Below are positions 31,031-62,483 of a DNA stretch of 64,000 nt, one piece after another. Position 1 is the stretch's first letter. Every line of letters begins with the position of its first letter. Both the position numbers and the translations under genes were made by a program. A model generated the notes under the pieces. The model made no database searches. It saw only the letters and a list, made by a program, of their open reading frames with translations, and was not told the origin of the DNA. Origin of the DNA: a virus (taxonomy: Duplodnaviria > Caudoviricetes); IMG/VR virus record IMGVR_UViG_3300037512_001279, positions 32,001-96,000 of that record, one strand, 5' to 3'.

Positions 31031-32221
31031 TTATGATGACAATGCTTTTTTGATTTGGGCTTGAGCCTCCTCAAAAGTCTTGTCAGAATAGTAGTAGTAA
31101 TCACGTGTGCAGTTAATATTCGTGTGTCCCATTTGTTTGATGATGAGTCTTTCGTCTACCCCGCCGTTAATAAGTTTCGTGGCATACGTTTTTCTGATTT
31201 TATGCATTGACCTTGGAGGTATTCCAAGTTTTTTACACAGTCTTAGAAGTCTCAACGTAAAACACCTGCTTAGGATTCTTTCTCCATTTTTCATAAACAT
31301 GTATTCACCGAATGGATTTTTCTTCCGTATTGTCGCAAGTATTTTTTTAGCCTCGTCATTTAATATGATCGTTCTGTTACCGGCTTCGGTCTTAGGAGAC
31401 TCTCTAACCTGGAATACGTAGCCACCATCTTTGTCCTTGAACCGTTCCTCTGTCTTTGTGATGCTCAACAAATCCCCAGTGACGTCGGAGTGCTTCAATG
31501 CAGAAAGTTCTCCTACTCTCAACCCTGTTTGAAAAACCAATAGAATTCCAAGGTCAATTAAGCTAGACCTCTTCCACAATTCGAACTCAACAGCATCGAT
31601 TTCTTCTTTTGTGAAAACCGAATCTTCATCTCGAATAACCTTTTTCTTAAAGGCTTTTCTTGACAGTTCGAGATAATCACCGAAGAAATCTTTTGCACTT
31701 ATGTCCGTGTATCCCCGTTTTTTGCCATACTTTAAAACGCCTATAATTAAGGTTCTTACACCATTGTAAGCCTTGTAAGACAGATTAAAGTCGGAAATTG
31801 TTTTCTTAATAAAGTCTTCAAGCTCTGACTCCGTCAGTCGTTGCAGTTCTACCTTGTCGAAACCAGTTTTTACAAAGTATCTTGTAAAGTCCGTCCTGTA
31901 ACGATCATATGTTTGTTTTTGTATTTCATTATATTCTAGTTTCCTGTCCACCCATTTGTCAAAAATTTCTCCAAACGTGTTCACCTGACTATGTTGGAAT
32001 ATCAGGTCTTCAATTTCTTCTTTTGTTTTCTTTCGCTGCAACGCCCTCCCTTTCCTTGAATCATCAATGTACGTGTACCAATAACCGTTTTCTCCTTGCC
32101 AAATTTTGTGATTGTGTTTTTGCAGTGCTTCTTCTTTTTTCTTCATATCAATTTGGTCGCTTAATAAGTTCGCGTCTATTATACCATTCTTTAACGCGAA
32201 ATTCAATGTACTTTCATTCAA
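31031..32221 (-). CDS. int: Tyrosine integrase
   Basis: TGLRVGEL (R), SPKT (K), HKIRKTY (H-x-x-R), MGH, YY. Confidence 0.92.
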   Translation of the reverse strand: MNESTLNFALKNGIIDANLLSDQIDMKKKEEALQKHNHKIWQGENGYWYTYIDDSRKGRALQRKKTKEEIEDLIFQHSQVNTFGEIFDKWVDRKLEYNEIQKQTYDRYRTDFTRYFVKTGFDKVELQRLTESELEDFIKKTISDFNLSYKAYNGVRTLIIGVLKYGKKRGYTDISAKDFFGDYLELSRKAFKKKVIRDEDSVFTKEEIDAVEFELWKRSSLIDLGILLVFQTGLRVGELSALKHSDVTGDLLSITKTEERFKDKDGGYVFQVRESPKTEAGNRTIILNDEAKKILATIRKKNPFGEYMFMKNGERILSRCFTLRLLRLCKKLGIPPRSMHKIRKTYATKLINGGVDERLIIKQMGHTNINCTRDYYYYSDKTFEEAQAQIKKALSS

Positions 32222-33144: not shown

Positions 33145-33442
33145 CTTGTATACCCAACCTTTTCAACTCTCTGTTTATTGATACTTGACATTTGTCAAGT
33201 ATTTCCGAAAAGTTACCATAGTACCGATTGTAAAACGGGGCGTATATTGTTTCGTGATTCGAATCATATACCTTAACCTTTACGACGCCTTCAGTCGCGT
33301 TATATATTAATTCTCCAATCAGTGTTGACTTTCCGGAAATTTCATCCTTCAGTACGGTAAAAGTATGAATGTAAATTTGGTTGTCTGCATCGGAAAAATC
33401 ACGACTAAAAGACCATTGAGATTTACGTTGTGAAGTTTTCAT
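33116..33442 (-). CDS. Hypothetical protein
   Basis: ATG overlaps the nrdD stop codon. Confidence 0.55.
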   Translation of the reverse strand: MKTSQRKSQWSFSRDFSDADNQIYIHTFTVLKDEISGKSTLIGELIYNATEGVVKVKVYDSNHETIYAPFYNRYYGNFSEILDKCQVSINRELKRLGIQDVNDYHCRV

Positions 33443-36400
33443 TACATTGAAACCCTTTCTGCTATTTCTGCATTTTTGGCAGGATTATATCTTGTTTCAC
33501 CATGAACTCTTGTAAATCCAAGATATCCATTCATTCTATCTATCTTTGTAAGTCTAGTGCTTCCACATTTAGGGCAGGTAGTCATCTCAACTTGCTGATA
33601 TCCGCAATCTTCGCAATAACACATTGCAAGATTTACGCCCTCATAAAAGCCCTTCTCCATTGCCCTTAACACCAAACTTTTAATTGCTTCAACATTATAA
33701 CCGAGATTATATCTGCAGTATTGTATTTTACCGCCATTAAAATAATTCCAAAACCTTTCTTCTTTATCTTGCTTTTCAATTGGTGAAATCTTTTCTGTTA
33801 CATGGCAATGAAAACTATTACTTACATAGGCCCTGTCTGAAACATTTTCAATAATTCCATACATTTTACGGAATTGCTTTACTTGAAGACCGCAAAGGCT
33901 CTCTGCAGGAGTCAACACAGATGTATATTTCTATACTGGTTACTGTGTTGCAACATATCTTCATGTTTGCTAAACATGCCATCAGTTTCGAATAAGTGCT
34001 AATCTCTTATTCTACTCTACTCAGTTATTCATATAAAACTAGCTTATGTTTTATATTATCCTTTCGATGTCCTCTACATACTCATTATAATATTCAAAAT
34101 GATAACCATGCGAACTTTTAAATCCATATTTATGTTTACATATTTCTGAAATATGAGAATTTTCATATTCAATATTTAAATCATCACATGCTTCTTTGAT
34201 GGTTTCATATATCTTATTATTTTCTTTACAAATTATTCTTTTTCTGTTCCCTATTTTTAATATTTTAGATCTGTGTATATTTTGTTCTTCTCTTGTCATA
34301 TATTCTAAATTTTCAATATTATTATTTTCTTTATTACCATCAATATGATTAACTGTCAGTTCGCTTATGCCAACAAATGCATACATTATCAATCTATGAA
34401 TTCCGATTGTAATTCTTTTATCGTTATACCATATATGACATTTAATCCATCCACGTTTAGATTTGTTTTCTGCCACATATTTATCAAGTACGGAATCATA
34501 TACATGTCCGTCATTTGTTGCATAATATCTGTTATTTGTATTTGGTATTACTTTTTTAATTATTTCCAATATGACTACCTCCTATTAATTTGATGTTCGA
34601 TAGTCATATTTTGAATATTATTAATGAGACACGGTATTGCCTTATCCACAATGTGGACTTAGGTTCTCTTACCACCTTAATCTTTCGATTTAGTTGACCG
34701 TTAGCCCGAATATATCAGACACCCCTTAGCTGGGTTTGATGGTTTAAACACGGCAATCATTTACCGTATATAGCATACAAAACCTGATCTTCTTCTTTAA
34801 TTCTGTCAACATACTTTTGAATGTATTGCATAACTTCTAGTGCAAAATCACCATCTTCACGTATAGATTTACCGTTATATAGCTCTTGTAATTCGTTAAG
34901 TGCTGTAATTCCATAGCTGATAGTCATGGGTTTTAGGATGCTCTTGATTTTTTCATTTGGCTGAAGGTGTCCACCATAAAAACCACCTTCACAAAACATC
35001 ACAGGGTTTGTCGATGCTTTGAATTCTCCAATATAATCAATCGTTCTAAGATGTAGTTTTCTAATTAGCTCAAGGTAATAATTCAAAACCTCATAAAAAT
35101 CCTTGTTTTCCTGTCTAGATTTTGCAAGTATCATTGGAAGATTTAATGATACTACTCCCATATTAAACCGCCCCTCAAATACGGGCTTGTCATCATCATC
35201 TGCCGGATGCATACCACCTCTCTCATACCAAGGAGAAAGGAAGGCCCTGCAATTATGACTATATAATCCACTTACTTCAAAATGTTCACTGTCAGTTGTT
35301 ACATCGTAACTATATCCAACCTTGTCTAGCCTTTCTACTTCAATTAAATTCGCTTTAACATTGTAGTGATCAGATACCGTTTCAACAAACTTGCTAGTTT
35401 TCTTTTCACATTGTATGTAATTCATAAGTTCTTCTGTAGGATAAAACTCTACCCTATATCTAATTGCATTATAATTCTTTTTGTTATAATGGTTATAGTA
35501 CATTTTTGCAGGCATACCAAGTGTTTGTGCAAGTGCCATCTGTTGTAATGCAAGTTCTTTATTTGTAGATCCAATCTGAATTACAGACCCACCATGAGAA
35601 ATTCCATTAACTCCACCATCTGCATCAATCATACCGGCTAGGAATGATAATTTCGCACTATAATTCCAAGAGAATACTTCGTTTGGAATATGTCTATTAA
35701 TTTTATTCATTCCACCAAACATTGATGTGAAGTAATTTATATTTTTTACAATCTCATTATTTGATGTTGAAACTGCACAAATATCCTTATATGTCCCTTT
35801 AGACCCACGTTCTTGAAGTTTTACTTTTGTACTAAGGTCAAAATATTTTTTAGCAACAAATTGAAATTTATTTACAATTTCGTCTTCCCCAAATGCAGCA
35901 ACTGATGCATATATGTGGTCAGACTGATAGCAACCATCACACAACATGAAACCTAAAAACCAAGCCTTGTCATCATTAAACAAAACATTTTCTTGACAGA
36001 ACTGATTTGAGTTAATTAATATTTCATCATCTTTTATTAGATCGATTGCATGTTTTGTAACTCCATTTGTAAGAGTAATTGGATGGTCTTCTGTACACAC
36101 TAACCTTCTACCGTTTGTAAAATGTAAATCCACCCATTTATCTGATACATTTCTAATAATTCTAGTTGTGTTAACAAATCCTTTTTCTGTATCATAAATT
36201 TCAACATTATTTAAATCCATGTACAAATGTGGTTGGCCTTTAATTTGCTCTTTAGGTTCAAATGAATCTGTTAATCTATCCCACATTCTTTCAAAAGATT
36301 CTACAAAAAGTTGTCCTTTATATTTGTATGTTACAAGTTCTTTACCATCTACACAGCCCATGGGAGAGATAACTCTGCCATACTTTTTATACATTTCAGG

Positions 36401-37576
36401 GACATAGCCTTCTCCAGTAAGACTTAACCAATCAGGATACATTGTTTTACTACTGCATTCTATGCCTGCATTGAACACGTCTGCACTTGGATAATCAGAA
36501 GATCCGTCGCCATGAAGGTTTTTATCATATAAAAATACAATTTTGGGAAATAAAACAGGACGCTTAAATCCGTCCTTACCTTGTCCTTCCTTATGCACCT
36601 CTAGTAATGTAATAGCTGCCATCTTTCCAAATTTATCAGTAGCCAATCCTATAGTTACTGTGACAAACGGGTAATCACCTCGAGAAGATCCGACAGAATT
36701 CAACTTTATTTCTAGCCCCTGCCAGCCTTGTTCAAAATCGCGTTTAACTTTTTTCATGGCATATTTGTCTGCAAGCTCTTTTAATTTTTCAAAATCAACT
36801 TTGTATTCATTAGTGCATTCGCTAAATATATCATTACAATTAACAAAATATTCATCATAATATTTCTTATACGACTTTTCTGCATATGGTGCTAATATTT
36901 TGTCGATTTCTGGAATTGTATATCCGCCGTATTGCTGCGCAGCAGTGGCAAGTATAATATCTCCGATCACATCAAATACAACATCTAGAGTGTGCGGTTC
37001 GTTATACCAAAGATTGCCCATTTCGAATCCGTCTTTTAATATATGTCCAACTCTACTAAGGCAACAATTTATCGTATCTAGTCTTGCGCTTCTGTCGTGT
37101 ATGTAAATATATCCATCCTTATCTGCTTGTATTTCTTCTAATGTTAAAAAGAATTTTTTATACAACTCAGAACTAAGGGAATTATATATTAAACTTCTTT
37201 TTGTAGCTACTAAAGCAGAATCTGTATTCGCATTATTCTTGTCACCAATATATCTAATTGATTGACTTTGTTCATAAACATTATCCATCATGTGTATAAA
37301 ATCTTTTTTGTAGTTCCTGTATTCTTTATACATTTTTGCAATCTCAGGATAATCTTCTTCCAATACAGATTCAACAATATTATGCATGTCATAAACTTCT
37401 ATCTCGCCGTCTTCATCATAATTCTCTTCGATTGTTTGCCAAACATCATTTAGAATTGTAAGATAATCCTCATCTTTTAATGTGATCATTGCTCTTCTAG
37501 CAGCTTTATTACATGCATCAATAATTTTTTGTTCTTTGTAGTCTTCAATAGTTCCATCCTTTTTTACGACTTTCAT
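33442..37576 (-). CDS. nrdD: Anaerobic (class III) ribonucleotide reductase; exons 37576-34763 and 33912-33442, containing an intein (precursor 1094 aa, mature about 726 aa)
   Basis: ATP cone (MKVVKKDG), YIHD, NCC, FPKIVF, PMG-C-RAFL, YAIYG|TPAESLC, CxxC..CxxC and RMNGY glycyl-radical motif. Confidence 0.95.
33913..34762 (-). ncRNA. Group I intron in nrdD (850 nt) encoding an HNH homing endonuclease
   Basis: Exon UACGGU pairs with IGS GCCGUG; ends in G before ACT CCT GCA; GAGGACAUC / AAGAUAUGUU P7 elements; in-frame join YG|TP. Confidence 0.9.
34051..34569 (-). CDS. Intron-encoded HNH homing endonuclease with NUMOD-like C-terminal domain
   Basis: HRL...VNHIDGNKENNNIENLE; its 3' end (VEDIERII) overlaps the intron core. 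Confidence 0.88.
   Translation of the reverse strand: MEIIKKVIPNTNNRYYATNDGHVYDSVLDKYVAENKSKRGWIKCHIWYNDKRITIGIHRLIMYAFVGISELTVNHIDGNKENNNIENLEYMTREEQNIHRSKILKIGNRKRIICKENNKIYETIKEACDDLNIEYENSHISEICKHKYGFKSSHGYHFEYYNEYVEDIERII
35252..36355 (-). mobile_element. Intein (368 aa) with LAGLIDADG endonuclease in NrdD
   Basis: Starts CVDG, block B CTEDH, LGFMLCDG and FLAGMIDADG, ends YDVT...SHN followed by C+1. Confidence 0.93.
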
Positions 37577-39210: not shown

Positions 39211-40338
39211 TTACGCTGATTCTAAGATTCTCAATCCCTCTACCTTGATATTGATAGCAGAGTTCCAATCTCTGTCTATTCCTTTGTGACCGCAATGAGG
39301 GCAATCCCATTTACGGATTCTAAGGTCTTTGAGATTTTCACTTCTATATCCGCACCAGTGACAGAGTTGAGAACTTGGGAACCACTTGTCTACTTTTATC
39401 AGATACCCGCCACGTTCTTTTAGTTTGTATTCTAAGAAGTTTACAAACATTCCGTAGCCATTATCCAAAGTAGCTTTACCATTTCCGAAGCCTTTATTTG
39501 CCATAGACCTCATATTAAGATTTTCCACACATACGCAAGCGTACTGATTGGCTGTCTCAGTTGACTTCTTATGTAGAAAATCTTTTCTTTGATTAGCTAT
39601 GTGTCTATGTATCTTAGCTATCTTCTTTTGTTGTTTTCGATAATTGTTACTTCCGATAATTTTATGTTTTAGCTTATGTTGAGCCTTTGCCAGTTTATCT
39701 TGTGATTGTCTGAAATAATGCGGCATATCACAATTATTGCCATCGCTATCCACATAAAGACCGTCTGACTTATAATCCAAACCCAGTGTATTCATACTGG
39801 TTACTGGAGCATATAATTCTTTAGTTTCATACTCAAATAATATAGAAACCTGATAAGTACCATCTCTATTTTGAGTGATAGTAGCTGATTTAAGTTTCCA
39901 ATCTTCATTAGGTTTCCTATGTATCTTAGCTTTTATCCTACCTAACTTTGGCAGTTTGATATAATTATCGCCTATCTCTATATTGTTATTGGTATAATTC
40001 GTTGTATAACTTTTCTTTGCCCTATGCTTATTCTTATACTTTGGATAACCGCCTTGCTTTTTGAAGAATTTGTCAAAACCATAAGCTAAATGAAATACTG
40101 CATTACTTAAAGCAAACTTATCGACTTCATTTAAGAAAACAAACTCTTTCTTTAGATGTTGAGTGCAGTAATTATTCGCTGATAGTTTGGATAAATGTTT
40201 TTCTCCATTCTTATATCGTTCTTGTTGTACACTAAGCATCTGATTATACACAAACCTGCAACAGCCAAAAGTCTTTTGGCATAATTCGGCTTGTTCTTTA
40301 TTTGGGTATATAGCGTAAATATAGGCTTTATTTGTCAT
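39211..40338 (-). CDS. tnpB: TnpB RNA-guided nuclease
   Basis: HTH KTFGCCRFVYN; RuvC residues GLD, VEN, DRD intact; CxxC/CxxC zinc finger. Confidence 0.93.
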   Translation of the reverse strand: MTNKAYIYAIYPNKEQAELCQKTFGCCRFVYNQMLSVQQERYKNGEKHLSKLSANNYCTQHLKKEFVFLNEVDKFALSNAVFHLAYGFDKFFKKQGGYPKYKNKHRAKKSYTTNYTNNNIEIGDNYIKLPKLGRIKAKIHRKPNEDWKLKSATITQNRDGTYQVSILFEYETKELYAPVTSMNTLGLDYKSDGLYVDSDGNNCDMPHYFRQSQDKLAKAQHKLKHKIIGSNNYRKQQKKIAKIHRHIANQRKDFLHKKSTETANQYACVCVENLNMRSMANKGFGNGKATLDNGYGMFVNFLEYKLKERGGYLIKVDKWFPSSQLCHWCGYRSENLKDLRIRKWDCPHCGHKGIDRDWNSAINIKVEGLRILESA

Positions 40339-40971: not shown

Positions 40972-41039
40972 TGTGTATCTCCTCCTTTTTATGTGAAATA
41001 TATCTATCTATTAATTCTCCAAAAATCTTTATAAAATAA

Positions 41040-41071
41040 GAAAAACGCCACCGATTTCTCGATGACGCCTT
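41040..41071 (-). terminator. Terminator ending the radical SAM operon
   Basis: Minus strand aaggcgtcatcg-agaaat-cggtggcgtttttt. Confidence 0.7.
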
Positions 41072-41097
41072 CCTTTTGGAGGTATTTTATGAAATAA

Positions 41098-41916: not shown

Positions 41917-42366
41917 TTAAACCTCTCTTTCAGACAAAACGATAAAATCTTTGCCGCCAAAATATCCAAGTTCTTTTAACAAATCTGATATAAATTCATC
42001 ATCATGATCAATTCTCTTGAATACTAACTTATATCCCTGATCTAAGTATTTCAGACACTCATTATATTTTTTCTTTTCGTATTCATTCCACTCATCATTT
42101 AGCCATTCTTCCAACGTGTCATACCGGCTACACTGAACGTCTTCATTAAATTGTGCATCCAGTTGATATTTTGATACTACTGAAATTCCTTCTTCAGTCT
42201 GGTAGGAAGAACCCCTCGCATACATAAGTCTCTCTACGAGATTATTGAAGTTGGCAAGAAATGGATATTTTTTGATAGTCTCCTTATCAATCTTTGGGAT
42301 TTCTTTATAGGCAATGATAAACGAACTGCTGCTTGAATTAGTGACGAAATCTGTTCTAATCTTCAT
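41917..42366 (-). CDS. NSSSSS-tag protein 3 (MKIRTDFVTNSSSSSFII...)
   Basis: RBS GAGGAG before ATG 42366; shared N-terminal motif. Confidence 0.75.
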   Translation of the reverse strand: MKIRTDFVTNSSSSSFIIAYKEIPKIDKETIKKYPFLANFNNLVERLMYARGSSYQTEEGISVVSKYQLDAQFNEDVQCSRYDTLEEWLNDEWNEYEKKKYNECLKYLDQGYKLVFKRIDHDDEFISDLLKELGYFGGKDFIVLSEREV

Positions 42367-42367
42367 T

Positions 42368-42655
42368 TTATCTCTCCTCAATATGCATAATTCCAATGTC
42401 ATTGCTTGTATATGAATCGCCATGGCTCCATGCGCCCGCAAAATTGTCAATCAAATACTTGTCAAACAAATCTTCCCAATCATCAGTACATTCTATTTCT
42501 ATCGATTTTCCTGATGTAAGGACAAACTTATCTTTAGCGTCTCTGATAATTCGATAAAATAGATTCTTCGCAAACTCTTCGCTAGTCATGTTGCTTGCGG
42601 TATTGTTCGTGATTATAAATTTGTGCTTTTTACTTTCTGAATAATAGTCGTTCAC
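42368..42655 (-). CDS. Paralog of 43162-43464 lacking the NSSSSS tag
   Basis: FIITNN...TSEEFAKNLFYRIIRDAKDKFVL.SGKSIEIEC.D aligns with FILTNN...SSEEFAEKLVGRIIRDAKGLFEL.PGESIELEC.D. Confidence 0.7.
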   Translation of the reverse strand: MNDYYSESKKHKFIITNNTASNMTSEEFAKNLFYRIIRDAKDKFVLTSGKSIEIECTDDWEDLFDKYLIDNFAGAWSHGDSYTSNDIGIMHIEER

Positions 42656-42682
42656 AATAAGTAACGTCCTTTCTTGATTATT

Positions 42683-43153
42683 TTAGTCGCAATATCCCCA
42701 CACGATTGGGACATCCGAAAATGCGTTTTCAACAGAATAAAAATCGTACCGGCAGCATCCTTTATTATCAATTAGATAATGATGATCTAGTCCTTCCCAT
42801 TGTTTGTCTTTTTCTAAAGCTTCATTGTAAAGTTCAATTGCATCTTCTTCCGTATAACCCCACTCCAAACGTGTTTTTATATATTCATCTCTAGTCTCTC
42901 CTCCGGTATATGGAGTGTATGGGTGATCTTTTGTTATAAAGCTTATATAGTAGTTCCCAACAGAAATTTCTCCTACTTCTTCATCATAAACGACATCTTT
43001 CCACCTTATTTTGTCGGAGTAACCAAAGTCTTTACAATCTTCCTGAGCCAATTCCTTTAGTTTTTTTAATAATTGCCCGAAAGTGCAATCCTTGCGATCA
43101 ATAATAAAAGAGCTAGAGCTACTGTTAGTAACAAAATCCGTTCTAATTTTCAT
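42683..43153 (-). CDS. NSSSSS-tag protein 2 (MKIRTDFVTNSSSSSFII...)
   Basis: RBS AGGAGG; shared N-terminal motif. Confidence 0.8.
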   Translation of the reverse strand: MKIRTDFVTNSSSSSFIIDRKDCTFGQLLKKLKELAQEDCKDFGYSDKIRWKDVVYDEEVGEISVGNYYISFITKDHPYTPYTGGETRDEYIKTRLEWGYTEEDAIELYNEALEKDKQWEGLDHHYLIDNKGCCRYDFYSVENAFSDVPIVWGYCD

Positions 43154-43161
43154 AATTCCTC

Positions 43162-43464
43162 CTAATGGTGAGACTCCTTGAACTCAACTGAAATATCATT
43201 ATCCATATAATAGTTGCCACTTCCGAACCAACTTCCTCCACATTCATTATGAATATATGTCTCAAAATAATTTTCATAATGATCTTCGCATTCAAGTTCA
43301 ATTGATTCACCTGGTTTTAATTCAAATAATCCCTTAGCATCCCTGATAATTCTGCCAACCAATTTTTCAGCAAATTCTTCTGATGACAAAGTTTCATTAG
43401 AATTGTTTGTAAGAATAAAACTACTTGAAGAACTGTTTGTCACAAAATCTTTTCTATACTTCAT
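43162..43464 (-). CDS. NSSSSS-tag protein 1 (MKYRKDFVTNSSSSSFIL...)
   Basis: ATG 43464 with RBS AAGGAG, overlapping the radical SAM stop. Confidence 0.8.
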   Translation of the reverse strand: MKYRKDFVTNSSSSSFILTNNSNETLSSEEFAEKLVGRIIRDAKGLFELKPGESIELECEDHYENYFETYIHNECGGSWFGSGNYYMDNDISVEFKESHH

Positions 43465-44551
43465 TCTGAATAAATCTCCTTTCATTTCTATTGCATAATG
43501 TAATCCCATTCATAAGCGGGCAACCACCACCGCACATTGCCCTATTGGGACAACCAGGGCAAGAATGATTTAATGAATACCTAAATCTGTCGAACATTGC
43601 ACTATCCCAAACTTCCTGAATAGTATGATCTCTCAGGTTCATGTGCCATTTTGGATCTTGATTTGCAAAACTGCATGGCATCATATTCATATTTGCATCA
43701 ATGTATGCAGAAAATCTACCGCCTTCACAGAAGTCAAGACTGTTCAGATCAATGTTGTGCGAGTAGTTAATAATACCAGCACAGGTACAACTGTCAAATC
43801 CAATCTTGTGGTGGAAATTTTGTTTGCTAACCAATTCAAAAAATTCCTTCACTTTTGGATCGTCTGGTTTAAGTACATTTTCTGAACGACCAAGCGGTAG
43901 CACGTTCTTGTAAAGCAAAAACACAACCGCATTTAATCCTTGTTTGAAACTGTCATTCCTTAATCTGCTAATGGCTTCATCAATGGAATTATTTCCGAGA
44001 ACATAATGAAGACTTGTCTTTACTCCGGCATTCATTAACATGTCAAGTGCCTTATTCGTGTAATCTGTATTATGCTCTGACACTGCAACCGCGCCGCAAT
44101 ATTCCTTACAAAGTCTAGCCTTCTCAGGAGTCATCATAATTCCACTGGTAGTAAAGTTCGGAACCATACCATACTGTCTTGTTAACTTTAAAAGCTCTTC
44201 AAAGTTCTCGTGAGTATCAACATCACCTGCACCTCCAAGGGCAATTTGCAGGCACTTACCCTCACACTGTTTCATAATGGATTCATAGTCTTTAACAGAC
44301 ATGTTTGCACCGCATCTTCCAATGGCATTTTGATAACAATCTACTTTACATCTATGAGCGCATACGCATGTCTGCATTACTCCAATATCCAATAACTCAG
44401 GAAAGCTTGCCATAAAAGGATCTACGCCAGTATCATTACCATTCTCATCCAACACGCCACTTCTCATGTAAAACCCTGTGTCAGTATTAAAAATTGATAC
44501 AAACTTATTCTTCTTATCATTTTTTCCGATTAACATTCCACATACCTCCAA
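43454..44551 (-). CDS. Radical SAM enzyme with SPASM-type C-terminal domain
   Basis: C-V-C-AHR-C-KVD-C-Y cluster motif, ALGGAG, FTTSG, CEGGRF.....PCSF and CPGC....CGGGCP. Confidence 0.88.
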   Translation of the reverse strand: MEVCGMLIGKNDKKNKFVSIFNTDTGFYMRSGVLDENGNDTGVDPFMASFPELLDIGVMQTCVCAHRCKVDCYQNAIGRCGANMSVKDYESIMKQCEGKCLQIALGGAGDVDTHENFEELLKLTRQYGMVPNFTTSGIMMTPEKARLCKEYCGAVAVSEHNTDYTNKALDMLMNAGVKTSLHYVLGNNSIDEAISRLRNDSFKQGLNAVVFLLYKNVLPLGRSENVLKPDDPKVKEFFELVSKQNFHHKIGFDSCTCAGIINYSHNIDLNSLDFCEGGRFSAYIDANMNMMPCSFANQDPKWHMNLRDHTIQEVWDSAMFDRFRYSLNHSCPGCPNRAMCGGGCPLMNGITLCNRNERRFIQNEV

Positions 44552-44565
44552 ATTTATTTTGTAAA

Positions 44566-45021
44566 CTATTTCAGTTTACAAATGAGAATCTCAACATCTA
44601 ATTCTCCAAAAATTTCCTTGATAATTTCAGAAACTTTATCCCACTGTAACTTATCCAAGCCACATCCGATTTGTGGCATTGCGATTTTCCTAACATCAGG
44701 ATTATTGATTACCATGGTTCTCATTGCTTTAAGAGCAGATTTCAACGTGTCATAAGTCGGCTTAAACCAATATTTCTTTTTAGTTATTAGATTATACACG
44801 CGACCTTCCAACAAACATGTTCCATGCTCATTGAATATATCCCATCTGTCCTCAAAACTGTGACCATATTTGTTGATTAAGCGATTCTTTATGTCAAAAT
44901 ATCTATTGAATTGAACCGCAATACCAGCTCCCATTGCAAAATCTGCACTAATACATTGTGCAAAATAGTAATCATCAGATACGGAGAACAAATCTCTTAT
45001 CTCTTCTTTATAGAGCATCAT
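44566..45021 (-). CDS. Macrodomain protein (ADP-ribose processing, Poa1p/DarG/TARG1-like)
   Basis: AQCISADFAMGAGIA, YNLITK and IAMPQIGCGLDKLQW. Confidence 0.88.
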   Translation of the reverse strand: MMLYKEEIRDLFSVSDDYYFAQCISADFAMGAGIAVQFNRYFDIKNRLINKYGHSFEDRWDIFNEHGTCLLEGRVYNLITKKKYWFKPTYDTLKSALKAMRTMVINNPDVRKIAMPQIGCGLDKLQWDKVSEIIKEIFGELDVEILICKLK

Positions 45022-45347: not shown

Positions 45348-45417
45348 ATGAAATCACCTCCATAGTTATTCATTCTCCAAATGAAATAAAAAAAGAGCGA
45401 AATTAATCGCTCTTTTT

Positions 45418-45515: not shown

Positions 45516-46166
45516 TTATATTTTAGTTCTTTTAGTATGATTTGCATATGTCTTCCAGTCTGGTTCATATTCGTCGTTAGCCTGATTTCCCCACATAGCC
45601 CAATTATCTCTGTTGCCACGTGCAAATAATTCTATATAAGGCCCAGGACTACATGATTCTATTAATGGTATGAATTCATCTGGCTTACGACTGTGTTCTC
45701 TCTTCATTGCCCTTATAAGATTTACTTGAGATCTTCCTGGTTGTAATGTGCGAAATGTTTTTCCTTTCTTATTTGTTTTAACTCCAAACAGTATTATTTC
45801 AGTTACATTCCTAAAATAGAATCCAACACCCCTTCCATCAGGCATTCCATCTTTTCTAGTTTTTTCCCATATGATATTTGTCTTATAAGTGAATCCCCAA
45901 GACTTTAATACTTCAATTCCCTCTATTAATAAAGCGTTTGGAACCCACATATATAAATGAGCATCGTCTGCTGTAATTTCATTTACAGGCAAAGATTTTA
46001 TATCATTTAAAGCCATTGTTGGATATCTTTTATTCTTCATATTTTCAGGAGCAATTTTACCAGTTCTGTTGCTAAATTGCCATGGTGGGTCTGCATAAAC
46101 TGTAACAAATTTTTTATCTCCACAAAATTCAAGTAAGTTTTTTGCAGTATCATTCATTTCTAACAT
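45516..46166 (-). CDS. MT-A70 family adenine methyltransferase
   Basis: ADPPW, LYMWV, WGF.Y, HSRKP and ELFAR motifs. Confidence 0.9.
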   Translation of the reverse strand: MLEMNDTAKNLLEFCGDKKFVTVYADPPWQFSNRTGKIAPENMKNKRYPTMALNDIKSLPVNEITADDAHLYMWVPNALLIEGIEVLKSWGFTYKTNIIWEKTRKDGMPDGRGVGFYFRNVTEIILFGVKTNKKGKTFRTLQPGRSQVNLIRAMKREHSRKPDEFIPLIESCSPGPYIELFARGNRDNWAMWGNQANDEYEPDWKTYANHTKRTKI

Positions 46167-46803
46167 TCTCCTTACATATGCCTATTGCAAGTATTGGACA
46201 TCCACCTTGTCTTCTACTATCAAGTCTGTATTTTAGTTTTCCAATCCATGTAGTAGAAGACCCATATTTGCTCTTTACACCAAGCCTCGTGAATATTTCA
46301 TTTAGGTTTTCTGCTCTTGTTACTATAACGCCAACATCAATTATACCACATTCAAAATATGTGCGCATTGCTAATATATCTCTATCGAATGTCTGATCTT
46401 TTGAATTCCATTCTAAATCAAGAGCCACTTTTCCTTTTATAAAATCAACATTATGACCATCTATAAATTGTTTAATAACTATTTCATCAGTAGGTGTTTC
46501 TTCAAAATTACCTTTATGGCATCCACGATTACGTTGATATGATCTAACATGAAGATCTCCAGAAATCCTTATTTCTCTCCATCCATAAGGATAAAGTACA
46601 TTATCAAATTTTTTTGGTATTGCTGATTCTGACCCGCCTGCGTCAGTAATATCAGAATGTACTATTTTAAATTTTCTCAAACATTCCTCAATCTCTGACC
46701 ATTGCTTAGGATATCCTATAGAAATAATCTCCAATGCATGCCCATAGTTTAAAAATTCATATCGAGGCAGAAGTTCTGGCCATATATAGTCTTTTAATTC
46801 CAT
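46150..46803 (-). CDS. BglII/BstYI-like type II restriction endonuclease
   Basis: GGSES.I...GW.E...HNVDF.K..VALDLEWNSKD..FDRD; overlaps the MTase gene; start at ATG 46803 after a G-rich RBS. Confidence 0.8.
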   Translation of the reverse strand: MELKDYIWPELLPRYEFLNYGHALEIISIGYPKQWSEIEECLRKFKIVHSDITDAGGSESAIPKKFDNVLYPYGWREIRISGDLHVRSYQRNRGCHKGNFEETPTDEIVIKQFIDGHNVDFIKGKVALDLEWNSKDQTFDRDILAMRTYFECGIIDVGVIVTRAENLNEIFTRLGVKSKYGSSTTWIGKLKYRLDSRRQGGCPILAIGICKENVRNE

Positions 46804-46966
46804 TAAACCACCCCCCAATAATATATTTTTATAATTTAATATATCATAAAATGAGGATGTAATGCAATAAAAAGACAAATTTAACCATTCAAACTGTTGT
46901 AAATGTCGTAGTCATTAGGCACTTTTAGACGGATAATATATATACTTTTTCTGATGAATTACTTGT

Positions 46967-49900
46967 TTATACCTGAATGCTGTTGCAAATGTCGTAATCA
47001 GTAACCCACCATTCCTTCTCGTCCGTGTCAGTCCATTTGCCGTTAACCATAACCTTTTTATTCTGTTTCGCCTGATTCTTAACCTTGATGATGTCACCAA
47101 TTCGGATCGGATTGTTTTCAAACAACTTCTTTGCAATCTTAACCGGAATGGTATTGCCATTCGCCATGGCATATAGCTTAAGTTTTGGCGAATATTTTGT
47201 ATCTAAATCAGTAACATAGCAATATCCTGCATACTTCTTGTCAACTATGTCAACATATCCAAGGTTTTCCATTTGATACGCTATTTTTTGTTTAGTAGTA
47301 GTCCTGTATGTCCTGTATTTATCAGACAGAATCTTTACCAATTTAGCGCCGTCCAACTCCATAAAAGTCTTGGGAGTCTCTTTACTGCAACACGACCTGA
47401 TTAATTCAAAATCAAGACCACTCTCCAAAGCCTTGTCTTTTTTAATCTGCTTCTTTGAATAATATTCAGAAAAGTATTCGTTGCACTTCAACAAATAAAC
47501 AATATCGCCAAACTCCTCGAAGAAATTCAACTTTATTAGAATATCAAGTTTCCTACTGTCAACCTTCAGGTCGCCAATTCTTGCCAATAAATCAATAAAC
47601 GAATCAAATGATTCTTCTCTAATGGAATACAGATCATCTGCCGCAGTTTCGTTAAGGAATTTTACAGACTCAATTCCTTTATAAATTCCAGTTTCGTCAC
47701 ACGAATATTTTGCGGTTGAGTGCCTAAATTTAATGCTATGAATAGGAATTCCAAGTTGTTTTGCCAATTGAGTACCCATCATAATGTCGTCTTCGTTATT
47801 GGCATTATTAAGGTACGCCGTGATAAATTCCTTCGGATAATAATAACGCAAGTATGCGCACATATATCCAATCATTGAATAACCAGTGGAATGATTATCG
47901 TTTTACCCATTATTTCTAATGGAACAGACTATATCATCAACTTAATTACTTAAGTTGTCTTGCACTACCGGTGGCAACTCATCTTCCACCGTCTTATACA
48001 TAATGTATGTTTAGTCGTTTGACCTTATAAACTAAAATTAGTTTATCTTGGCACAGGATTGACACCAACTTTACTTGCTGTGCTTTCCCTGTTAGCGCAA
48101 TTTTTAGCCATCATTTCCTATGGTTACTAAACGTAAATTGCACACCCATGAGTAATATGGTTCACAAGATTATTCAATATACGTCACCGTATAAGGGGGC
48201 TAATCATCCTAACCCAAATTGATAACTTGCACTGTCTTCAATGATTTGTAAGAACGCTTTGGCTTCTTTCTCAGCAACGTCTCTCGTCTTATCAGATTTA
48301 CTGCAATATCCTTCAAGGATTGCAGGTAATGCAGCTTCAAGTCTATCCTTTTGTTTTCTACCTATTGCACGACGAATGTTGTCTGCCTGAGATCCACTAA
48401 GACCACATATGTTTGTAAGAAATTTGATTGTATCCTCCTGGAATACCAAATATCCATCGTTTTCTTTTAGAAGGTCGTCGATTAATTTTGACGGATTTTT
48501 ATTTGGAATTTTGGCAAGAAGCCTATCTCTATAACTTTCACCTGACGGACGCAATGCTGCATTTACCAAAGACAAATCGTTAACACAAGCACACTTAAAC
48601 TTTTTCATTAGATCGAATGCATACCTGCCTTCAAATTGAAACACGCCTACTGGACTATCTCCAATATGATCCCACACATTTTTATCTAGCCAATCTACAG
48701 TGTGAGACTTAGGATACGGAATGCCTGCCAAAATACAAGTATCCTTAATAATCTCAATGTTCTTCAATCCCAACAAATCATACTTTACAAGGCTTACCTC
48801 GTGGATTTCCTCCATGTTAATCGACAGAATTCTTTTGCCGTCCTTCGCCCAGAAAGTGCCGTAATTGTCAGGAAGTGTTACCGGACTAACTATAATTCCT
48901 GCAGGATGCATGGATTGTGCTATTGTAGTTCCAACAAGTCCGTCAAAATAATAGAATACTTTTGGATATTCAATTTCCTTCAGTCTCTTCAATGCCTTTT
49001 CTGCATTTTCAATCTTTTTCTTGCATTCTTCTAAGTCATTCTGAAGCTTTTCCGTCTGAACTGTTTTAAGATTTTCCTCAATCTTCTTCATCTTTTCTTG
49101 CGTATCTGCGATTGTTGACGTGAAGTTTGAGTATAATTCCTTAATGTTCTTTACTTCATCTAAAGGAATGTCAAGTGCCCTGCCGATTTCATCAATCGTT
49201 CCTTTGTCAGAAACCGTAGTCATTGCAAGCACGTATGCGGTTTTGTCAGCACCAAACTTCTCAATAATGTGATCATACACAAGCTGTCTCTGTGACGGAG
49301 AAATGTCAAGATCAATGTCGCCAATTTCTTTACGGTCTTCGTTAGCAAATCTTGAGAATACCGTATTCCATACAATTGGATTAACGTCTATAATGTCAGT
49401 CAAATATGCTATGGTCGAACCGCCAACCGAACCCCTACAGAACCCCACCGGAATGTCGTTATCCCAACACCAGCACACAAGCTCTGACATGAACAGCATA
49501 AATCCAATCATTCCAATCTTTTTGAAAACTCTAAGCTCTTCCTGGATGTTCTCTTCATATCTTGGATCAGGTTGAATTATTCCTTTTTCAAGCTTCTCGT
49601 GGTACATTCTGTATATTCTTTCAACAAAAACTTCTTCTTCGTTGTCATACAGAACCGGATATTTAAATGCCGTGTCAAGTTCATAGTCTTCAACCATGTC
49701 TGCCATGCGATTAGTATTCTCTATGGCTTCTAATACAACGTCCATTGGCAATGAATTTTGCTGTCTAAACATTGCAACAAGTTCATCATAAGACTTGTAA
49801 GTAAGATCAAACTCGTCTTCATTTGAGAATTCAATCTTCTTAGCCTTTTGAAGGATGCTTCTGCACTCGGCCTTATATTTATCAAGGCTATGCGTATCCG

Positions 49901-50504
49901 TCGCTGCAATCAACGGTTTACCGTATCTTTTAGATGCCTCCCATAATGCCTGATTGTACTTGATTTGTTCAAACGAGTTAACGTGTGGCTGAATTTCGTA
50001 ATAATCATACGACCTAAGCAGTTTGTCATACGTTATCCTTGCGGTTTCATCATCAACGGTTTCTTTTACAAATGCAGGATACCTGCTTAATGGAGATGCA
50101 AGACATGCAGAAATCTTAATTATGTTATCTGAAATGTTAAAGAACTCATCAAACGAAATTCTAGGCTTGTAATACATGTGATCTTCTCTAGTCGATGTGT
50201 CTACGAGTTTGTTTAATTCCTTGATTCCATCTTTGTTTTTTGCTATAAGGATGGTATGGTAATTATCCCTGACCTTCGGCTCAAGCTCTGCCGTTAGGTA
50301 AATCTCAACGCCATGCATGTACTTTAAACCTTTTTCGTTGGCATACATTTTCTTTTCGATATTGTTATAAATATTGCCATGTTCCGTAAAACATATTGCG
50401 GTTTGTCCAAGCTCTGCGGCTCTGTCTACATACAATTTGTAGTTCGTACAACTATCTAGCAATGAATCTTCCGTATGCAAATGATAGCAAACATAATTCG
50501 GCAC
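46967..50504 (-). CDS. dnaE: DNA polymerase III alpha subunit; exons 50504-48212 and 47898-46967 (1074 aa)
   Basis: PHP domain (HLHT..SLLDS, TEHG), RGSVGGS, DIDLD, HPAG, KYDLLGL; spliced junction YQFG-Y-NHSTGY. Confidence 0.93.
47899..48211 (-). ncRNA. Group I intron in dnaE (313 nt, ORF-less)
   Basis: Exon GGGU pairs with IGS GCCC; GAUUA pairs with 3' exon UAAUC; R element CAAACGACUA, S element GAUGAUAUAGUCU; terminal G; restores GGG T|AT AAT CAT. Confidence 0.92.
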
Positions 50505-60689: not shown

Positions 60690-61826
60690 TTATGCGGCAC
60701 TGTTCTCGACAACATCAAGATATCTGTTCATAAGAGTAACAATGTGATTTATCTTCTTAGTTACAAGACTCTTGTCTTTAGTAGACTTGTTGCCTTCAAG
60801 CTCCTTATAACTACATTCTTCTATTTTAATTTCATTCATGTGTTGAGTAACAAACGCCCTTATAAAATCTCCGAACCTGTCGTCATCAATATTAAGAGAC
60901 TTAAACTTGTGAAATACAGTCATCCAAATGAATGACTCTTTATTCGTAAACAGTACTTCGCTGTCTCCGTCAACAATGTCTTCAAGTCTGTCAAGGGTGT
61001 TCTCAACATCCTCAAATTCCGTTAAATCTGCATTTGCCTTAAGGTAGTTGCACATGTATTCAAGATTATTACCAGCCCAACTGTCAAGATGATTCGACGC
61101 CATTACGGTTTCACAAATGCACCTGTCAATGTTTCCACTAGTCTTTCCGTTCTTACCAAAGTCTGCGCAATCAGTAAAGAACGAGTGATCAGACAGTTTT
61201 TTAACTTCGCCTGCATACTCTTCGCCAAGATTAACAACGCCCTTCTGCACCTTATTCATTGGTTTTCCGTCATTATATCTTGCGATGTGGTACACAATGT
61301 CTTCAGACGAACAGTCAAGATACAGAACTGCGTCAAAGCAATATTCCAAAATCTTGTCGCGAAGTTCTTCAGGTAACTGTGAAAATTTCTTATTAGTAAT
61401 GTCAAACTCCTTTACTTCAACAACAGGGACTCCATGACCGTCAAGAACTATCTTGCCTTTTTCATCAGTTACGTTTGCCTGATAATATATTTTGCTTCTT
61501 CTTACCTGACCGGAAATCTTAAATCCGTCATGAACGTAGCTGTAAACGTTCGTGCATCTCTGCTTTCCGTCAATGTTCCAAACAATCGAAACTCCGTTAA
61601 TGATCTGTTCTGCCAATATAATGGACGGAATTGGATTTCCTTGCAGTATGTCAGAAATCATGTTGCTTTTCATTTTCGTGTTCCACTGATCAGAACATCT
61701 CTGAGACGGATGATCAAACCTAATCGTGTGTTTCTCAATCTTTTTGCAGATTGCAGCTACGGAATATCTTTCCAATTTGTTTTCAGATTTTTTCGGCATC
61801 ATCATAATATTTATCCCTCCATACAA
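60690..61826 (-). CDS. ParB-like / DUF262 family protein
   Basis: QR...W....S..I..IL.GNPIPSI.LA...IDGKQR...YN.G motifs. Confidence 0.75.
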   Translation of the reverse strand: MYGGINIMMMPKKSENKLERYSVAAICKKIEKHTIRFDHPSQRCSDQWNTKMKSNMISDILQGNPIPSIILAEQIINGVSIVWNIDGKQRCTNVYSYVHDGFKISGQVRRSKIYYQANVTDEKGKIVLDGHGVPVVEVKEFDITNKKFSQLPEELRDKILEYCFDAVLYLDCSSEDIVYHIARYNDGKPMNKVQKGVVNLGEEYAGEVKKLSDHSFFTDCADFGKNGKTSGNIDRCICETVMASNHLDSWAGNNLEYMCNYLKANADLTEFEDVENTLDRLEDIVDGDSEVLFTNKESFIWMTVFHKFKSLNIDDDRFGDFIRAFVTQHMNEIKIEECSYKELEGNKSTKDKSLVTKKINHIVTLMNRYLDVVENSAA

Positions 61827-61889: not shown

Positions 61890-62483
61890 TCAAATACGTT
61901 CCAATAAAATCCGGTTTTCAAAACGTCTCATTTCGTCAACACAGATGTTATACCTTTTCTCCGACATGTTTAATTTTGCCTTAATGTCGTTTTTGTCATA
62001 ATCTTGGATTATTAATTCTACAATTTGTTTCTGTTTTGATGACAATCCCTCAATAAAAGTTTCAAGCCCATTATCTTGTAACTCTTCAATGTCATCAGTT
62101 ATGTCGTAACCCGAATCAATAATGTCTGCATAAGTTTTGTCGCTGTCGTAAGAAAGTTCAGAATCAATGCTTACACAGTTTTTTACAGGAATCCTTTTCT
62201 TTCTGTTCTTCTTTGACATCATTGATTTAAATCTGTTTGTAATGCATCGCCTTACATAGTTGTCAAAAGAATCATTTATTTCTTCATTAAACATCATGGC
62301 TGCCTTCCATACCGTCAAGTTGGCCATGGAATAAAAATCGTCGTATTCAAAATCAGCAATCGCACTCCCAAACGTACTGCGAATAATCTGATCGCAAATC
62401 TTTTTTAAATTTGCCATCTCATTTCCACAATACTTCAAACACATTTTTTGAACGTCTTCATCTCGCATACGCAATACCTCCAT
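61890..62483 (-). CDS. Phage sigma-70 family factor, SigH-like
   Basis: DD..S.A...VWKA...F....SF..Y...CI.N...S......RKKR...SID region 2; LS.KQ..IV.L HTH region 4. Confidence 0.8.
   Translation of the reverse strand: MEVLRMRDEDVQKMCLKYCGNEMANLKKICDQIIRSTFGSAIADFEYDDFYSMANLTVWKAAMMFNEEINDSFDNYVRRCITNRFKSMMSKKNRKKRIPVKNCVSIDSELSYDSDKTYADIIDSGYDITDDIEELQDNGLETFIEGLSSKQKQIVELIIQDYDKNDIKAKLNMSEKRYNICVDEMRRFENRILLERI

Follow-up and report, generated by a model that had tools for sequence, protein, structure and literature searches.

The window analysed here is a 64,000-nucleotide stretch of DNA, positions 32,001 to 96,000 of the 121.6-kb IMG/VR virus record IMGVR_UViG_3300037512_001279 (Duplodnaviria; Caudoviricetes), whose source is a phage of anaerobic bacteria. 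At positions 41917-44551 it carries a gene for a radical S-adenosylmethionine (SAM)/SPASM enzyme followed by four small genes, three of which (A, B and D) encode proteins that begin with a shared peptide, referred to here as the tag. The pair of tag and enzyme is present in hundreds of phages, and in bacteria and archaea it lies beside Avs2-like immune genes; the locus is therefore probably an example of a system that has not been described before, one enzyme recognising many proteins of different kinds and likely modifying them. The locus itself is best explained as one operon for the enzyme and its client proteins. The genes of the module all lie on the minus strand, and coordinates are positions in the window:

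43454-44536, minus strand: radical SAM/SPASM enzyme, 360 residues from an ATG at 44536
43454-44551, minus strand: longer form of the enzyme in the list of open reading frames (ORFs), 365 residues from a TTG at 44551
43162-43464, minus strand: tagged protein A, 100 residues, isoelectric point (pI) of the body 4.5, N-terminus MKYRKDFVTNSSSSSFIL
43411-43464, minus strand: tag-coding segment of A, 18 codons
42683-43153, minus strand: tagged protein B, 156 residues, pI of the body 4.6, N-terminus MKIRTDFVTNSSSSSFII
43100-43153, minus strand: tag-coding segment of B, 18 codons
42368-42655, minus strand: gene C, untagged paralog of A, 95 residues, decayed tag NDYYSESKKHKF
41917-42366, minus strand: tagged protein D, 149 residues, N-terminus MKIRTDFVTNSSSSSFII
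42313-42366, minus strand: tag-coding segment of D, 18 codons

From 5' to 3' on this strand the order is enzyme, A, B, C, D. A GGAGG sequence lies 8 nucleotides 5' of the ATG at 44536, so the enzyme is most likely the 360-residue form; residue numbers below refer to the 365-residue TTG form. The ATG of A lies within an 11-nucleotide overlap with the 3' end of the enzyme gene, the start of B follows the stop of A after 8 nucleotides, and a single nucleotide separates C from D. These overlaps and short gaps bear out the coupling of the three tagged genes directly 3' of the radical SAM/SPASM gene that a preliminary description of this DNA had pointed out. Gene C and its kinship to A (46% identity over 74 residues, E=1e-22, BLASTP) were absent from that description.

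The N-termini of A, B and D read MK(Y/I)R(K/T)DFVTNSSSSSFI(L/I), and client proteins in general start with M-K-x-R-x-D-F-V-T-N-S-S-S-S-S-[FY]-[IV]-x. A degenerate pattern of the tag occurs exactly three times in the 121.6-kb record, and the reversed pattern used as a control gives 0 occurrences. The preliminary description had noted that the tags use different synonymous codons and are conserved as a peptide, and both statements hold: the tags of B and D are identical at 18 of 18 residues and at 40 of 54 nucleotides, those of A and B at 15 of 18 residues and 39 of 54 nucleotides. Among 336 tagged ORFs, T9, N10, S11-S13 and S15 are invariant, conservation reaches 97% or more at K2, R4, D6, V8 and S14, F7 is found in 92% and replaced by Y in the rest, and either F or Y occupies position 16; the motif stands at the exact N-terminus in 322 of them. 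Across 405 distinct tag DNAs, each serine of the tag is encoded by all six possible codons, of the AGY as well as the TCN class, which indicates that selection acts on the peptide, and conservation at the RNA or DNA level was rejected on the same ground. Out of 1.84 billion cluster representatives, a profile of the first 35 residues matches 18,318 at E<=0.001, an upper estimate for tag-bearing protein clusters (about 18,000, defined at 50% identity), and nearly all of the best 150 profile matches align at residue 1.

The proteins behind this peptide are diverse. The bodies of A, B and D (residues 20 onward), which had been described as dissimilar, indeed match one another by BLASTP no better than E=0.2 and belong to different families, with hhalign probabilities below 1% where the pair was listed. 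Tagged bodies form about 40 BLAST clusters; profile-profile comparison relates only 3 of the 14 largest and leaves at least 10 body families unrelated. The family of D is the commonest, with 61 members in 55 contigs. Clients range from 73 to 1249 residues, and the longer proteins headed by the tag, whose N-termini were verified, include BRCT, BspA-type leucine-rich repeat (LRR), HIRAN, ankyrin and RCC1 domains. The tag is therefore portable, as the preliminary description had supposed. The bodies are all acidic (median pI 4.5). Scanned with Pfam, NCBIfam, PHROGs and PADLOC, they stay below every threshold; the only hits are phrog_7397, itself a tagged family with a weak match to the N-terminus of B, and a weak LmuA-like stretch in D. 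Compared with the PDB by Foldseek, the model of D resembles only generic alpha/beta sandwiches, none of them at E<=0.001, and an Atlas search with D matched only unnamed viral clusters. As a separate observation, six proteins (P0125, P0126, P0127, P0128, P0131 and P0169) carry two tag copies, the second internal and preceded by Met; they look like neighbouring tagged ORFs fused by stop-codon loss or read-through.

The structural models suggest how the tag is presented. The AlphaFold2 model of the D family (34 sequences, mean predicted local distance difference test score, pLDDT, of 87) has residues 1-13 as coil, with 1-5 below a pLDDT of 50, and S14-Y20 as the first strand of a four-stranded alpha/beta fold; in the A family (mean pLDDT 70.5), residues 1-11 fall below 50. 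Since residues 1-11 or 1-13 are unstructured in these models, the invariant K-x-R-x-D-F-V-T-N-S-S is predicted to protrude, with only the S-F-I-I end being structural. It could be argued that the tagged proteins are very distant homologues sharing a fold or active site, the tag being a core strand or a phosphate- or metal-binding serine loop. The first strand of D and the hydrophobic residues that always follow the tag serines agree with such a kinship, which we nonetheless regard as very improbable: hhalign relates none of the 12 largest body families to one another, and the exposed tag, its identical presence on LRR, BRCT, HIRAN, ankyrin and RCC1 proteins and the retention of the body without the tag in paralog C all argue against a buried strand of a shared fold. 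The preliminary description had named such a strand as an alternative; it applies to S14-Y20 of D, and not to residues 1-11 or 1-13 with the invariant D-F-V-T-N-S-S, which are unpacked in both models, of two unrelated families.

Tag and enzyme are linked in both directions, with a fixed operon order, in line with the co-occurrence that the preliminary description had put forward as a check. Scanning IMG/VR for K-x-R-x-D-F-V-T-N-S5-F gave 107 stretches on 92 contigs, of which 68 contain the enzyme gene within the stretch that was fetched and a further 16 at another place in the record (84/92). Conversely, tags are present at each of the 6 loci that were found with the enzyme alone and at 70 of another 75 loci anchored on the enzyme (76/81). 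Of the 225 tags that share a locus with the enzyme, every one is encoded on its strand, and all but two (223 of 225) follow it downstream within about 4 kb. A phage contig holds 1-7 tagged genes (median 3.5), and no other gene family, in particular no protease, is conserved with the pair across loci. A sister tag, G-F-V-S-N-S5 (GFVSN), is commoner than the main tag in viral contigs; the enzymes with which it is paired form a divergent clade within the family. The enzyme is found locally in 41 of 105 GFVSN-only stretches; when 47 records (from the first 50 of the 75 loci lacking it in the stretch) were searched whole, 29 had it elsewhere. Among the GFVSN records searched whole, it is present in every one with a completeness of 90% or more (8 of 8).

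Variation within the tag is also related to variation in the enzyme. In one phage lineage three unrelated genes share the change D6G, as do most genes of a second lineage, so that the tags have changed in concert, and D273 of the enzyme, two residues before the auxiliary-cluster cysteine Cys275 of the SPASM domain, becomes E with the G-tags in both G clades. The tag-enzyme pairs comprise 129 of the D-D type, 41 of the G-E type (two separate G clades) and about 10 exceptions. From these alignments, the tracking of D6G by D273E is suggestive of a relation between tag and enzyme.

The pair extends beyond viruses, so that the original description as a phage system was correct for its occurrence in phages and too narrow in scope, the pair also lying behind Avs2-like STAND (signal transduction ATPases with numerous domains) NTPases in bacteria, archaea and plasmids. 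Scanning prokaryote genomes with the tag pattern gave at least 120 stretches, mostly from Clostridia and other anaerobes, and also from methanogens, Deltaproteobacteria, Bacteroidota and a candidate phyla radiation bacterium; 97 of the 120 stretches listed have the enzyme within the stretch (8 kb or less). In about 9 of the 120 listed loci the enzyme and a single tagged protein, from a conserved family, form a cassette with an Avs2-like STAND NTPase and a small protein. This cassette is seen in Arenibacter, Methanoculleus and Sporomusa, and on plasmids of Agrobacterium (pAt), Rhizobium and Rhodobacter, and its NTPases match Avs2 models down to 9e-32 (PADLOC) and at 1e-20 (NCBIfam). In Arenibacter (L172:3892-4715, plus strand), the tagged gene is preceded by a small paralog from which the serine run has been deleted (26% identity over 102 residues, E=3e-8), which echoes the A/C pair of the window; the two small proteins of the Agrobacterium cassette have no such similarity. 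The operon in the window contains no STAND NTPase gene.

The tag could alternatively be a signal that works independently of the enzyme, for capsid packaging, export or controlled degradation, the enzyme being merely co-regulated or acting on another substrate. Its position at the very N-terminus, the small, acidic and hypervariable bodies, which resemble injected phage proteins, and the phage contigs that have tags without an enzyme would all suit such a signal. We consider it improbable, given that the linkage is about 90-95% both ways with order and strand fixed, that the pair occurs in capsid-free Avs2-type cassettes of bacteria and archaea, that tag variants track enzyme clades, and that neither a conserved protease nor a cleavage motif after the tag is found.

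The enzyme carries a SPASM domain (Pfam PF13186, 28.9 bits against a cut-off of 21.5; NCBIfam TIGR04085, 33.1 bits against 27) and gives partial matches to many radical SAM NCBIfam models, down to 1e-10, and a match to phrog_7293 at 7e-23. The closest solved structures by sequence are SuiB (5v1q, 1e-8), SkfB (6efn, 1e-6) and PqqE (6c8v, 4e-6), followed by BtrN and, weakly, anSME; SuiB, SkfB, PqqE and anSME are enzymes that modify peptides or proteins. The canonical cluster motif of radical SAM enzymes is CX3CX2C, and the motif of the present enzyme, C62-x-C64-x3-C68-x3-C72, is as atypical as first reported. The triad C62/C68/C72 is conserved across relatives, with the spacing Cx5Cx3C and the extra C64 in the clade of the window and the spacing Cx7Cx6C in the larger sister clade. 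The glycine-rich SAM-binding motif is represented by ALGG(A/R)GD at residues 104-110, with G106, G107 and G109 invariant in 71 sequences. The full set of SPASM cysteines (C255, C275, C293, C331-x2-C334-x5-C340-x3-C344 and C353) is conserved across relatives, in agreement with the seven-cysteine pattern, CX2CX5CX3C included, by which SPASM domains hold two auxiliary clusters; together with the radical-SAM cluster, three [4Fe-4S] clusters are expected. In the related phage contigs L054 and L116 an interruption splits the enzyme gene near residue 102/103, next to the ALGGxGD motif; in one of them (L054:3819-6128, plus strand) an in-frame intein of ~420 residues with a LAGLIDADG endonuclease sits at this motif. 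Inteins usually occupy functionally essential sites.

We give an even chance to the reading that the enzyme uses the tag as its handle for recognition and modification. This proposition is supported by the two-way linkage, the operon order, the pairing of the sister tag with its own enzyme clade, the concerted change of tag and enzyme, the kinship of the enzyme, the predicted exposure and the portability of the tag, and the intein site. In such a mechanism, the first ~13 residues of a client would form an exposed, flexible peptide and the last five of the tag the first beta-strand of the following fold. The enzyme, its radical-SAM cluster presumably held by the non-canonical Cx5Cx3C triad, would bind the exposed tag in the cavity between barrel and SPASM domain, where the 5'-deoxyadenosyl radical would abstract a hydrogen from one of the invariant T-N-S5 residues. 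The resulting covalent change could be, for example, a cross-link, an oxidation or an epimerisation. A single enzyme would thereby mature 1-7 unrelated acidic proteins per phage, and the same pair may serve Avs2-like immune ATPases in cells.

It is also conceivable that the tag is a docking handle without chemistry, which recruits variable binding modules to the enzyme, the latter acting on the captured target or being a scaffold, much as an F-box brings targets to the SCF ligase. The classic interaction domains of the long tagged proteins would be understandable on these terms, and the linkage and co-variation suit binding as well as catalysis. Docking is, in our judgement, unlikely: the presence of up to 7 clients per enzyme gene favours catalytic turnover over a stoichiometric arrangement, the invariance of the radical-SAM/SPASM cysteines and of the GGxGD motif implies that chemistry has been retained, and five invariant serines would be unusual in a surface docking motif. 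Known SPASM enzymes, moreover, take the substrate peptide into the barrel, as the structures of SuiB and anSME established. A physical contact that would agree with docking is known from the KpAvs2-Avap1-Avap2 anti-phage operon of Klebsiella pneumoniae, in which the small partner Avap2, with an HHpred match to DUF6375, binds Avs2 (Bechon et al. 2024, Nat Commun 15:9860, PMC11564622). The Pfam model DUF6375 (PF19902) gave no HMMER match to the tagged proteins or their genomes, the published link of Avap2 having been made by HHpred.

Several observations weigh against a recognition and modification handle. Pfam Radical_SAM (PF04055) reaches only 17 bits in the enzyme against a cut-off of 29.5. 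Pfam and NCBIfam scans matched no PqqD-like leader-binding domain, the recognition element (RRE) of enzymes for peptides that are made on ribosomes and modified after translation (RiPPs), the conserved N-terminal segment of 55 residues being too short for one, and no separate PqqD partner gene is conserved beside the enzyme across loci. Tag residues 14-18 are structural in the model of D, and five invariant serines exceed the need of a single target residue. Untagged paralogs persist, namely gene C in the window and the small upstream gene in Arenibacter, so that bodies can survive without the tag. The co-variation of D6G and D273E derives from two major events only, which is why it is called suggestive. 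The enzyme is missing from 8 of the 92 tag-bearing viral contigs, mostly fragments, among them one 92%-complete record of 332 kb and another with four tagged genes, and about 10-13 of the 120 listed prokaryote stretches hold several kb upstream of the tag without it. The preliminary description had foreseen that tagged proteins might commonly occur without the enzyme; this is the case for a minority of phage contigs and is at odds with the majority. Contigs L313 (G008:C1:27000-40000), L314, L315 and L316, whose records are 60-92% complete, have 1-4 tagged genes each and no enzyme gene anywhere in the record, and such phages perhaps rely on the enzyme of the host or of a co-resident element.

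A role of the pair beside Avs2-like immune ATPases in cells makes it most likely that the phage proteins take part in conflict between phage and host or between phages. It can be hypothesised, tentatively, that the system is a general-purpose, portable protein-marking system of phage-host conflict, in which the tag would turn whichever protein bears it into a substrate and a radical mark on T-N-S5 would license activity, arming or regulating Avs2-like complexes in cells and arming arrays of fast-evolving proteins for counter-defence or exclusion in phages. Were the enzyme to modify the tag, the module would be a system of post-translational modification in which a very short, transferable N-terminal peptide turns full-size proteins of no common kinship into substrates of a single radical SAM enzyme. 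The module touches about 18,000 public protein clusters, none of known function, and a short, genetically encodable handle for radical protein chemistry could serve as a tool.

The surroundings of the operon in the phage comprise replication genes, an anaerobic ribonucleotide reductase, a restriction-modification pair and a macro-domain gene. They are compatible with an accessory, conflict-related role, and none of these neighbours is conserved with the module. The features outside the module are:

45390-45417, minus strand: terminator-like hairpin 5' of the unit, from a consensus scan only
41038-41075, minus strand: terminator-like hairpin 3' of the unit, from a consensus scan only
44566-45021, minus strand: macro-domain protein directly 5' of the enzyme, DarG-like at 8e-13, phrog_335
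45516-46166: MT-A70 methyltransferase, overlapping the next gene
46150-46878: BglII-like restriction endonuclease
46967-47875, minus strand: HHH_6-containing C-part of DNA polymerase III alpha
48204-50504: PHP/NTPase/finger part of DNA polymerase III alpha
39211-40338, minus strand: TnpB/IS605 OrfB (Cas12f-like TNB domain), just downstream of the operon
33442-37576, minus strand: anaerobic ribonucleotide reductase NrdD, in pieces
34757-37576, minus strand: N-part of NrdD, holding an intein with a LAGLIDADG endonuclease
34051-34569, minus strand: HNH endonuclease ORF
33442-33918: glycyl-radical C-part of NrdD
31031-32221, minus strand: tyrosine integrase
60690-61826, minus strand: protein with a GmrSD-like N-terminal domain
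61890-62483, minus strand: sigma-70 region-2 protein

Judged from its sequence, the hairpin at 45390-45417 is probably the upstream boundary of a transcription unit with the macro-domain gene, the enzyme and the tagged genes. The macro-domain gene was rejected as a member of the module, as it is not kept beside the enzyme in other phages. The gene for DNA polymerase III alpha is apparently split, with a gap of ~330 nucleotides between its parts, and the methyltransferase and endonuclease lie directly downstream of it. The HNH ORF lies between the N-part and the glycyl-radical C-part of NrdD, an interruption that looks like an intron or homing-endonuclease insertion. No match to TIGR02491, the model of the NrdG activase of class III ribonucleotide reductases, a small radical SAM protein without a SPASM domain, was found anywhere in the 121.6-kb record. 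The possibility that the radical SAM/SPASM enzyme is itself the missing activase of the phage NrdD was rejected, since it has a SPASM domain, gives no TIGR02491 match and is tied to the tags, not to nrdD.

A full-text literature search for the letters of the motif found no relevant paper, and none describing the tag. As an N-terminal motif paired with a radical SAM/SPASM clade, the tag itself appears, from this search, to be new to the literature, the nearest papers describing other motifs (PMC7159879) or an Avs2 accessory pair without a tag (PMC11564622). In its barrel and SPASM layout, its auxiliary-cluster cysteines and the recognition of a conserved substrate peptide by one enzyme, the module is similar to SuiB/StrB (streptide), SkfB and PqqE. 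These act on short precursor peptides by means of an N-terminal RRE, modify a C-terminal core and have the leader then removed, whereas here a 16-18-residue peptide stands at the extreme N-terminus of full-size folded proteins of many families, and no RRE was detected. The module further differs from RiPP maturases in having no protease conserved nearby, and Cx5Cx3C or Cx7Cx6C instead of CX3CX2C. The capsid-targeting sequence of the T4 internal proteins is likewise a short, conserved N-terminal peptide on otherwise unrelated, fast-evolving small phage proteins. The prohead protease cleaves that signal, which lacks an enzyme partner of the radical SAM kind, and the present tag, in contrast, also occurs in non-viral cassettes. 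Among phage proteins, the RB43/RB16-type radical SAM proteins of T4-like phages (phrog_7293) are ~27% identical over 88% of the enzyme and share its N-terminal segment F..TG.Y.R.G..DP..FPE.LD, but have the cluster motif Cx7Cx2C. At the one RB43-type locus examined, in Buttiauxella phage GuL6, the ORFs flanking the enzyme homologue have no tags, which places this clade outside the system.

Other SPASM enzymes, such as anSME/AtsB and CrpC, are similar in acting on whole proteins rather than peptides. Identity with anSME/AtsB was rejected (TIGR03942, 15.3 bits against a cut-off of 349): anSME targets C/S-x-P/A-x-R in a single homologous family, and this motif is absent from the tag. CrpC puts thioethers on the Cys-rich protein CrpA (PMC13692751), whereas the tag contains no cysteine. 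A closer parallel is offered by the FxSxx-COOH peptides that occur with radical SAM/SPASM enzymes in STAND/AP-ATPase conflict systems (Kaur, Burroughs, Iyer, Aravind 2020, PMC7159879), where radical SAM/SPASM modification of a short conserved motif on variable proteins beside STAND-type NTPases is likewise predicted. That motif is C-terminal and released by a peptidase, while the tag is N-terminal, has another sequence and is accompanied by no conserved peptidase. The closest published relative of the cellular form is the KpAvs2-Avap1-Avap2 operon, which combines a radical SAM protein, a small protein and the STAND NTPase Avs2 in the same type of cassette as the cellular relatives of the module, the likeness being one of gene layout and description. 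The window differs from it in having no STAND NTPase and in having one enzyme with three tagged clients and a decayed paralog, and the paper describes no N-terminal tag. The module connects large phages of anaerobes with Avs2-type innate immunity. There, defence against phage T2 requires the radical SAM partner Avap1 (PMC11564622), and the published question of what Avap1 does would become directly testable with an 18-mer peptide.

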